64,000 bases of DNA, taken from the NCBI GenBank assembly GCA_964456855.1, contig CAYWCU010000001.1, positions 8,442-72,441 on the forward strand. The letters are read 5' to 3'. The DNA comes from an uncultured Candidatus Saccharibacteria bacterium. GTDB taxonomy: Bacteria > Patescibacteriota > Minisyncoccia > UBA9983. A program made the position numbers and the translations under genes. How positions within the stretch are numbered: position 1 is the first letter of the stretch; every line of letters begins with the position of its first letter. The notes beneath the pieces were generated by a model. It ran no database searches and was not told the DNA's origin. It saw nothing but the letters and a program-made list of their open reading frames with translations. This document shows positions 50,860 through 51,581 of this stretch, one piece after another.

Positions 50860-50893
50860 ATCGCCATTCTTGACGACCGTCAAGAATGGCGAT
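50860..50893. repeat. perfect palindrome A (atcgccattcttgacg-acc-cgtcaagaatggcgat)
   Basis: 16-bp arms; the same core recurs at 51525-51581. Confidence 0.7.
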
Positions 50894-50941
50894 AAAATGT
50901 TTAGCATAGGGTCATTTTTGGGTTAGCAAGGTGATAAGGAA

Positions 50942-51520
50942 ATGAAAAAAGGGAAAAGGTTGAAAATTTTAGAAGCATTGCGAACTGGCGTTGATATAGC
51001 CGGCGACCTGATTTTTATTTTTACCCTCCCTTATGGCACTACACTGCCACGATCTTTACGTCTTCTGGAAAAACGGAATCAGGAACGGGAAGTCAAAAAA
51101 TTAAACAGTCAAAAAAGAGAAGAATTAAAAAAGGAAAAGGCCAGATTTTCCGATTTAATCTACAAATTAAAAAAGGATGGCTTAGTGGAAGTCGGACAAA
51201 ATAAAATATTTTTAACCAAAAAAGGAGAGCTGTACCTAAAAAAGGAAAAGGGCAAGCCGAAAACCCGATACCCTGTCCTGGCCGGCGAAACAACAAACCT
51301 TATCGTGTTTGACATACCTGAGGAAAAAAGAAGAAAGAGACAATGGCTGAGAGAAGTGTTGAAAAATCTAGAATACAAGCAACTGCAAAAAAGCGTCTGG
51401 ATTGGAAAAAACAAATTTCCGGAAGAATTTTTACGGGAACTCTCAATATTAAACTTGCACAACTGCGTAGAGATTTTTTCCATAAGCAACAAGGGCACTT
51501 TGCGCAGAAGGAGGGTGTAA
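50942..51520 (+). CDS. PaaX-like putative transcriptional regulator (N-terminal wHTH, Cas2-like C-terminal domain)
   Basis: N-terminus KILEALRTGVDIAGDLI and C-terminus LIVFDIPEEKRRKRQWLREVLKNLEYKQLQKSVW resemble PaaX-family regulators. Tentative. Confidence 0.4.
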   Translation: MKKGKRLKILEALRTGVDIAGDLIFIFTLPYGTTLPRSLRLLEKRNQEREVKKLNSQKREELKKEKARFSDLIYKLKKDGLVEVGQNKIFLTKKGELYLKKEKGKPKTRYPVLAGETTNLIVFDIPEEKRRKRQWLREVLKNLEYKQLQKSVWIGKNKFPEEFLRELSILNLHNCVEIFSISNKGTLRRRRV

Positions 51521-51524
51521 AAAC

Positions 51525-51581
51525 AATAAATCCCTCTCGCCATTCTTGACGACCGTCAAGAATGGCGAGAGGGATTTATTG
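51525..51581. repeat. perfect palindrome B (27-bp arms, 3-nt loop) containing the same core as A; bidirectional terminator
   Basis: aataaatccctctcgccattcttgacg-acc-cgtcaagaatggcgagagggatttatt; it overlaps the ligA stop codon. Confidence 0.7.

Follow-up and report, generated by a model that had tools for sequence, protein, structure and literature searches.

In a 64-kb stretch of contig CAYWCU010000001.1 from an uncultured Candidatus Saccharibacteria bacterium (the window; positions refer to it unless a locus is named), we analysed a small gene for a winged-helix/Cas2-fold protein that lies between two copies of one long palindrome. Gene and palindromes together make up a block of about 716 bp that is present or absent as a whole between related genomes, and most of the sampled relatives of the gene in the Patescibacteria are bracketed by palindromes of the same kind. 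We propose that the block is a self-contained unit which combines a protein with the hairpin repeats cognate to it and is autoregulated at its left end, with a logic resembling that of repetitive extragenic palindromes (REPs) and their REP-associated tyrosine transposases (RAYTs) or that of the insertion sequence IS200. Our rough probability for this proposal is 0.45, slightly below even odds. The parts of the unit are as follows:

50859/60-51575, plus strand: cassette of palindrome 1, promoter, gene and palindrome 2, 716-717 bp between homology breakpoints
50857-50896, no strand: palindrome copy 1, perfect 19-nt arms at 50857-50875 and 50878-50896
50870-50898, plus strand: sigma-70-type promoter-like site, TTGACG-17-TAAAAT, 10/12 matches
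50942-51520, plus strand: gene with a 192-aa product, winged helix-turn-helix at about residues 1-103 and Cas2-fold domain at about 113-190
51521-51584, no strand: palindrome copy 2, perfect 31-nt arms at 51521-51551 and 51554-51584
51521-51529, plus strand: AAACAATAA, outer part of the left arm of copy 2, repeating the final 9 nt of ligA (51576-51584) perfectly in inverted form

The two palindromes share a 32-bp core, TCGCCATTCTTGACGACCGTCAAGAATGGCGA, which is identical at 50861-50892 and 51537-51568 (direct-repeat family D14 of the window). The first-pass annotation had thus placed two copies of one palindrome correctly, but several of its details need revision. The unpaired centre consists of the two nucleotides AC and not of 'acc', and the arms measure 19 nt in copy 1 and 31 nt in copy 2 instead of 16 and 27 nt. 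Copy 1, situated between divergent genes, ends 45 nt rather than 49 nt before the ATG at 50942, and copy 2 abuts the stop codon of the gene (51518-51520) with no gap, where a distance of 5 nt had been given. The reported overlap with the end of ligA holds: the stop codon of ligA (51576-51578, minus strand) and the two sense codons before it fall within the right arm of copy 2. That such palindromes are rare by chance was also right, since the 30-nt pattern gave no match in 100 dinucleotide-preserving shuffles, none being expected. In the 64-kb window there is no third copy, even with up to 3 mismatches allowed, nor a third palindrome centred on CGRYCG, and an exact search for the window palindrome in species-representative genomes returned no match. 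For both copies, predicted folding is much more stable than for shuffled sequence (z-scores from -9 to -15), with energies of -28 kcal/mol for copy 1 (z = -9) and -55.5/-53 kcal/mol for copy 2; a search of Rfam gave sub-threshold hairpin look-alikes only. The window also holds unrelated long palindromes, namely at 879-926 (perfect, loopless, 24-nt arms), 33774-33808 (perfect, 17-nt arms) and 46315-46353 (18-nt arms, 94% complementary).

Bracketing by palindromes is a feature of the protein family. We sampled 80 metagenome loci with relatives about 32-45% identical, plus the closer L001 (86%) and L002 (53%), and compared the 140 nt before the gene with the 140 nt after it, taking as threshold the 95th percentile of mismatched-locus controls. 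The two flanks share an above-threshold match in 68 of the 79 loci that have enough flank, corresponding to 44 distinct pairs, and almost all of these matches are palindromes of 30-45 nt (about 36 bp) with the centre CGATCG. Neighbouring genes vary in identity and orientation from locus to locus: 61 of the 84 neighbour clusters are singletons, upstream neighbours lie on the plus strand in 46 cases and on the minus strand in 21, and downstream neighbours in 38 and 26. The palindromes therefore go with the family gene and not with its neighbours. Paired copies have no fixed polarity. Among the 44 distinct pairs, the direct orientation aligned better in 14 and the inverted one in 8, with 22 ties, and copies with asymmetric centres are direct in the window and inverted in L023 and L031.

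Alignment of 142 distinct sites on their centres revealed the anatomy of the repeat. The centre ACGA/TCGT is near-invariant, with the variants CGACCG (as in the window), CGGCCG and CGGTCG, so that the consensus reads CGRYCG. Arm positions 11-17 are hypervariable between lineages, each showing four pair types (position 15 three); at these same positions the arms are 93-99% complementary, compared with 33-77% in shuffled controls. Complementarity falls to background past position 19. In downstream copies, G:T and A:C mismatches are about equally frequent (25 vs 22, no strand bias), and upstream copies have 39 vs 20, with the excess at arm positions 5 and 7, which lie in TTGACG. Mutual information between protein columns and arm bases merely followed column entropy, which makes this covariation test uninformative.

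Copies also occur away from the family gene. A scan of species-representative genomes with the commonest arm class (CTATCC-N7-CGATCG-N7-GGATAG) yielded 33 loci, 30 of them in Patescibacteria. Several genomes carry three to seven exact-pattern sites, seven being found in Wolfebacteria GW2011_GWA1_44_24. In each genome at most two such sites flank the family gene; the others are located in divergent, tandem and convergent intergenic regions. According to translations read by eye, neighbours of the solo copies are unrelated housekeeping genes (tyrS, murG, mraZ, uvrD-like, pgk and rplJ), and some solo copies follow directly after the stop codons of convergent genes, e.g. in L113. Copies within a single genome vary in the inner arm yet stay complementary (aactta/taagtt, aattga/tcaatt, atccga/tcggat), and further palindromes in the same genomes have the CGATCG centre but entirely different arms. 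The metagenome loci bearing the family gene, about 324 kb in all, contain only three distinct non-flanking copies, i.e. roughly one per 100 kb. A reading of the palindromes as dif sites was dropped in view of the several copies per genome and the hypervariable arms.

Some of the sampled neighbourhoods show features of their own. L060 and L103 come from one genome, that of Wolfebacteria GW2011_GWA1_44_24. At L060 (2923-4362), the family gene and an adjacent gene for a 167-aa LexA-like winged-helix protein are each delimited by palindromes, three in total; a fourth copy lies upstream of rplJ (L103, 7797-7828). We considered the palindromes as LexA boxes on account of their TACTGT-like ends and the LexA-like neighbour in L060, and discarded this idea owing to the length of 36 bp and the conserved CGATCG centre. 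The commonest neighbour is a gene for an XerC/D-like tyrosine recombinase, adjoining the family gene in about six lineages; it lies upstream in L061 (736-2904), L068, L041, L042, L066 and L076 and downstream in L032, and the 722-aa protein of L061 apparently carries an intein-like insertion. In one Parcubacteria population (L123, 4531-4986), a LAGLIDADG-type open reading frame is located two genes downstream of the family gene, with smpB and infC on either side. An apparent 112-nt indel 3' of the gene in L132 proved to be a scaffolding duplication around a run of N and is not real.

In the window, the palindrome upstream of the gene is interlocked with a promoter-like site. Its inner left arm is the -35 box TTGACG, the remaining palindrome forms the 17-nt spacer, and the -10 box TAAAAT abuts the right arm; L001 and L002 show TTGACG-17-TAGAAT in the same register. 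Across the family, a strict -10-like hexamer on the strand of the gene, starting the search 13 nt and ending it 23 nt rightwards of the centre, is present at 29 of 56 upstream copies, with a peak at +15/+16, as against 5 of 50 downstream copies and 8 of 56 for the opposite side of the upstream copies. Given this difference between upstream and downstream copies, the upstream palindrome is built into the gene's own promoter. A palindrome within a promoter occupies the classical position for autorepression, an arrangement that many insertion sequences also have at their left ends. By its score, copy 2 is a terminator-like hairpin for both directions (stem 51531-51574, 20 pairs counted) with T-rich tails on both strands (TTTATTGTTT); of the two copies, it alone has, at a gene's 3' end, a G+C-containing stem followed by a T-rich tail. 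Family-wide, there is no enrichment of T-tracts after downstream copies (T fraction 0.30 vs 0.33 upstream). Operator sites for autoregulation, with reuse of one as a terminator, had been the first of three readings offered at first pass. Promoter overlap and terminator score speak for it, the palindromes being putative operators.

The second of these readings was a mobile cassette of about 720 bp, to be checked by comparing the loci of relatives. We searched with the LigA protein of the window for close relatives and compared the contigs of near homologues. The following features flank the cassette:

50275-50748, minus strand: yqeY (GatB/YqeY-domain), flanking gene, which in relatives directly follows ligA in the same orientation
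50785-50858, no strand: window-specific spacer, variable in relatives, between the yqeY promoter region and the cassette
50850-50859, plus strand: left copy of a candidate target-site duplication, TTATTTGTTT, 9-10 bp, weak and A/T-rich
51576-51584: right copy of the candidate target-site duplication, TTATTGTTT, in the 3' end of ligA
51576-53597, minus strand: ligA, flanking gene, which ends within the right arm of copy 2 (last two sense codons and stop codon)

In six loci from five relatives, yqeY comes directly after ligA, the two genes overlapping or being 4-132 nt apart; neither the family gene nor a CGRYCG palindrome is found in these loci, i.e. the cassette is absent as a block. The state of the ligA/yqeY junction in relatives is:

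L116, LigA 90% identical to that of the window: cassette absent
L118/L119, LigA 73% identical: cassette absent
L120, LigA 73% identical: cassette absent
L121, LigA 72% identical: cassette absent
L122, LigA 70% identical: cassette absent
L002, LigA 72% identical: cassette present
L001, no LigA value, as the contig ends inside palindrome 2: cassette present, separated from yqeY by an acetyltransferase gene

At the nucleotide level, homology of the window to L116 (81-86%) breaks off at the ligA stop codon (51575/6) and is regained at 50789. With L001, homology sets in again precisely at 50859, where palindrome 1 has its outer end. These breakpoints define the cassette as 50859/60-51575, 716 bp bounded by the outer ends of the palindromes. 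The spacer on the yqeY side measures 74 nt in the window, 729 nt in L001 and 28 nt in L116. In L001, the acetyltransferase gene (799-1359, minus strand) lies immediately to the left of the cassette, which suggests that the left border is a rearrangement hotspot. In the LigA tree, occupied sites fall into two separate clades, each with unoccupied close relatives; to account for this pattern, either the junction was hit twice by insertion or clean losses occurred three times or more. The motif of the candidate target-site duplication occurs once only in the empty site of L116; for L002 vs L120, the sequences were too diverged to resolve such a duplication. In sum, block-wise presence and absence agree with the cassette reading as far as the unit itself is concerned, but we see no recent transposition, and the palindromes are not classical terminal inverted repeats.

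Other features of the neighbourhood, which in the window comprises yqeY, ligA, gatC, a PGA_cap-family gene and pilin-like genes, should be mentioned. An extended -10-like box (TGnTAAAAT) precedes the yqeY ATG by 6 nt both in the window (50749-50790, minus strand) and in L116 (5060-5093). It suggests that yqeY has its own promoter and an almost leaderless mRNA, in which case insertion of the cassette need not silence yqeY. The PGA_cap gene (49193-50254, plus strand) lies antisense between gatC and yqeY and is itself polymorphic among relatives, being present in the window, L002 and L120 and absent in L118 and L121; L116 has a 266-nt remnant weakly similar to the 5' part of the gene. Three small genes in a row with type IV pilin-like N-termini (53599-55253, minus strand) precede ligA in all relatives examined, and their 5' ends repeat at about 570-590 nt (direct-repeat family D5). 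Elsewhere, at 24797-26517, segments of 54 and 77 nt recur about 600-1570 nt apart (families D1 and D4), probably marking tandem paralogous genes or repeated intergenic modules.

The two palindromes of the window bear signs of a copying process. Their cores are identical at 32 of 32 positions, as opposed to 81% likeness between the two copies of L001, whose genome is about 84% identical to the window at the nucleotide level. We count this in favour of the proposed unit, as the window copies would have been homogenised recently. In addition, each copy has arms prolonged by sequence of its own. In copy 2, the extension mirrors the last 9 nt of ligA, and the left-hand 9 nt would most simply be the templated copy, because their right-hand partner is constrained as ligA coding sequence. 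Copy 1 of L001 is extended to arms of 26 nt that include the -10 box. Selection for protein binding would fail to explain such extensions, whereas hairpin-templated copying, or selection for a longer stem, could do so.

The protein itself is predicted to combine a winged helix with a Cas2 fold. In Pfam, PaaX_M ('Cas2-like', PF20803) matches residues 120-186 with E = 5e-13 and 49.3 bits at a cut-off of 24, and CRISPR_Cas2 (PF09827) matches with E = 4.8e-5 and 23.9 bits at a cut-off of 23.8. With the Cas2 model TIGR01573 (cut-off 24.5 bits), the window protein reaches 23.2 bits; its relatives P0022 and P0039 lie above the cut-off with 26.5 and 35 bits. Cas2 models of PADLOC also match the window protein. 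These matches back the Cas2-like domain of the initial description. The label 'PaaX-like regulator' is apt for the middle domain only: the Pfam models for the PaaX N-terminal domain and PaaX_C gave no match to the window protein with E up to 1, and the PaaX model TIGR02277 scores 13.6 bits on P0039 against a cut-off of 264. The AlphaFold2 model (predicted local distance difference test score, pLDDT, 84.5) has a helical N-terminal part with a beta-wing. Its top Foldseek matches are Cas2 structures, PaaX of E. coli (8a39) and Rv0674, the Cas2 matches having a probability of 0.99 but E values of about 0.05. For the N-terminal part, the family profile gives weak MarR/PadR winged-helix matches (residues 46-123), and some relatives have PadR and HTH_45 matches in Pfam; the C-terminal domain compared with PDB sequences by phmmer gave noise only. 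No match to an HUH Y1 (IS200/IS605-like) transposase was obtained in Pfam, NCBIfam or PADLOC.

Clustering at 50% identity divides the family into 829 clusters at an E value of 1e-30 or below. Members with a named source belong to Patescibacteria (e.g. Wolfebacteria, Jorgensenbacteria, Moranbacteria and Parcubacteria). Members are labelled 'Cas2' (some by NCBI), 'PaaX', 'PadR' or 'hypothetical' in databases; the viral contigs and phage genomes searched contain no relatives. The gene is single-copy, occurring once in the window and once per related locus examined. In the family alignment, the hallmarks of Cas2 are invariant or nearly so (FDIP with Asp124, Arg133, Arg137 and QxSVW), the invariant residues being G95, D124, R133, R137, S151, V152 and G155, and the predicted recognition helix (residues 66-82) is conserved as well. 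With Cas2 and VapD-type nucleases, the protein shares a predicted ferredoxin-like Cas2 fold, an hhhFDI beta1 strand with the invariant Asp, a basic helix and QxSV(F/W). As in CRISPR systems, the associated repeats are of CRISPR-repeat length. Unlike in Cas2, the domain is fused to a winged helix, and the repeats enclose the gene itself at a distance of about 680 bp from each other. A CRISPR-like array was not seen among the 20 largest of the 38 direct-repeat families of the window, and no Cas1 family match was found among the genes called around the homologues in L002, L123 and L131, the window itself not having been searched for cas1.

We picture the system as follows. The unit would have been inserted antisense into the junction of a ligA-yqeY operon. 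Its repeats would represent a class of hairpins of about 36 bp with a conserved CGRYCG centre and fast-evolving complementary arms, almost always bracketing the family gene in Patescibacteria, and most likely serve as cognate sites of the protein. Since the -35 box is part of the left repeat and the -10 box directly adjoins it, the protein, once bound, would switch off transcription of its own gene. The right repeat would end the transcript of the gene and, in the window, also the convergent ligA transcript. Templated or hairpin-dependent copying may keep the repeats alike and symmetric, possibly with participation of the protein, for which a nuclease or mobilising role is conceivable. An end-binding protein would thereby autoregulate from a promoter in the left end as in a minimal insertion sequence, except that it would have a Cas2 fold and not be an HUH transposase.

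Two known systems resemble this arrangement. With REP/RAYT, it has in common a single-copy gene at a stable location that is flanked on both sides by hairpin repeats of about 35 bp, which in related genomes are also dispersed intergenically, and lineage-specific repeats whose stems are kept by compensatory changes. It differs in that the protein is a winged-helix/Cas2-fold protein instead of an HUH/Y1 transposase, that the conserved part is the hairpin centre instead of the 5' GTAG of REPs, that there are about ten copies per genome instead of tens to hundreds, and that REP doublets (REPINs) were not seen. IS200, of the smallest insertion sequences (IS200/IS605), is likewise about 0.7 kb long with one small gene and hairpins at both ends, one of which interacts with transcription signals, and is inserted in an intergenic junction. 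In contrast to IS200, the unit has no tnpA (HUH) gene and no visible recent transposition, and its end hairpins are copies of each other. An autoregulated end- or repeat-binding protein with its repeats is thus of a known kind; the new aspects are the Cas2-fold protein and the hairpin with a conserved centre. We found no description of the protein family or its repeats in the literature.

Several points weigh against our proposal. Contact between protein and palindrome is presumed, and the nearest relative to have been characterised, PaaX, acts as a plain repressor. An HUH motif, a tyrosine motif, an invariant Tyr and a known recombinase fold are all absent from the protein. The candidate target duplication is A/T-rich and imperfect, and presence and absence of the unit could stem from clean deletions, which do happen at this junction, as the PGA_cap remnant of L116 attests. 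Identical proteins keep the same context in 15 and 7 contigs of different samples; there is, for this reason, no sign of ongoing movement. From the balanced mismatches of downstream copies, a role at the RNA level is not indicated. Finally, solo copies are few (about one per 100 kb and none in the 64-kb window), while classical REPs number tens to hundreds. This low number also limits the third reading made at first pass, a REP-like element, in whose favour stand the solo copies in related genomes with their 3-7 sites.

The strongest competitor is an ordinary autoregulated dimeric repressor of the PadR/PaaX type, which we regard as somewhat unlikely. The palindromes would then be duplex operators, that upstream of the gene serving negative autoregulation and that downstream acting as a further operator, for looping or as a roadblock, as well as a terminator; the solo copies would define a small regulon, and gain or loss of the gene with its operators would be ordinary genome flux. 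This explanation stays alive because of the operator-like palindrome covering the gene's own promoter from -35 to -10, the low number of sites (about 5-15 per genome, typical of a regulon), the stable location of a single-copy gene, and the homology to PaaX, in that one domain resembles the PaaX middle domain and is preceded by a winged-helix domain, with PadR and HTH_45 matches in relatives. PaaX is the repressor of phenylacetate catabolism and binds a palindromic operator; in E. coli PaaX (PDB 8a39), a winged helix is likewise followed by a Cas2-like middle domain. The family protein differs from it in being shorter (192 vs about 310 aa), in lacking matches to PaaX_C and the PaaX N-terminal domain, in a sequence at least as near to Cas2, and in sites of 36-64 bp on both sides of the gene. 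No phenylacetate (paa) genes are located near the window gene, and neighbours across the 80 related loci are varied. Observations that a unit with cognate repeats predicts, and that fit poorly with a simple operator, include bracketing on both sides, with a downstream copy in most loci regardless of the orientation of the next gene; variable positions that stay complementary within a genome, which degeneracy of half-sites does not predict; and several arm classes per genome around one centre. The predicted recognition helix (66-82), which is conserved, is set against arms that differ wholly between genomes, and this too favours the unit with cognate repeats over the operator. The same holds for the solo copies, which occur in all types of intergenic regions, including those between convergent genes and beside functionally unrelated genes, and for block-wise presence and absence.

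A cassette moved in trans is quite improbable. Here the palindromes would be sites for a separate recombinase, e.g. an Xer-like one, and the gene would be cargo or an accessory factor. Like attC cassettes and Xer-dependent dif modules, the unit has a single gene between palindromic sites, which are alike and have a conserved 6-bp centre; it is present or absent as a whole, it appears array-like at L060/L103 where three palindromes delimit two genes, and the XerC/D-like gene is its commonest neighbour. However, no site is left at empty loci, although recombination between direct sites should retain one. The arms, which would be the recombinase-binding part, are hypervariable and the centre is conserved, the reverse of dif and attC; the orientation of asymmetric centres is not fixed; and the 'cargo' always belongs to the same gene family and has its own promoter. 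The stems in the window are perfect, without the extrahelical bases of attC, and no Xer/IntI-like gene is present in the 64-kb window. Structural punctuation alone, i.e. terminators or insulators around an antisense gene that are kept alike by gene conversion and are unrelated to the protein, would suit the strong bidirectional hairpin of copy 2 at a convergent junction, the solo copies directly after convergent stops (L113) and the other long perfect palindromes of the window, but is very improbable, given that the repeats occupy both flanks of one gene family in most loci as against about one solo copy per 100 kb, that termination needs no centre conserved across hundreds of lineages, that downstream copies generally lack T-tracts, and that copy 1 lies between divergent genes with nothing to terminate.

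Taken further, the proposal of a protein with cognate repeats would mean that a Cas2-fold/winged-helix protein recognises, and perhaps cuts or copies, its own repeats of about 36 bp outside CRISPR, as part of an unrecognised class of elements in Patescibacteria that inserts as a 0.7-kb unit into operon junctions and follows the logic of REP/RAYT or IS200 with another kind of enzyme. We hold this extended claim to be unlikely as it stands. If true, it would be the first Cas2-family protein with a repeat specificity of its own and would bear on the question of how Cas2 and palindromic repeats became associated. Part of the family of 829 clusters is mis-annotated as 'CRISPR-associated endonuclease Cas2' or 'PaaX'. 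With one small protein and one 36-bp site, the system is ready for experiments with a sharply defined DNA partner, and it could decide whether the Cas2 fold serves here as the dimerisation module of a repressor or does the work in an element that handles repeats. Patescibacteria account for much of bacterial diversity, and to our knowledge almost nothing is known about their regulation and mobile DNA; for these bacteria, the layout described here explains the interruption of operons by genes of this family.

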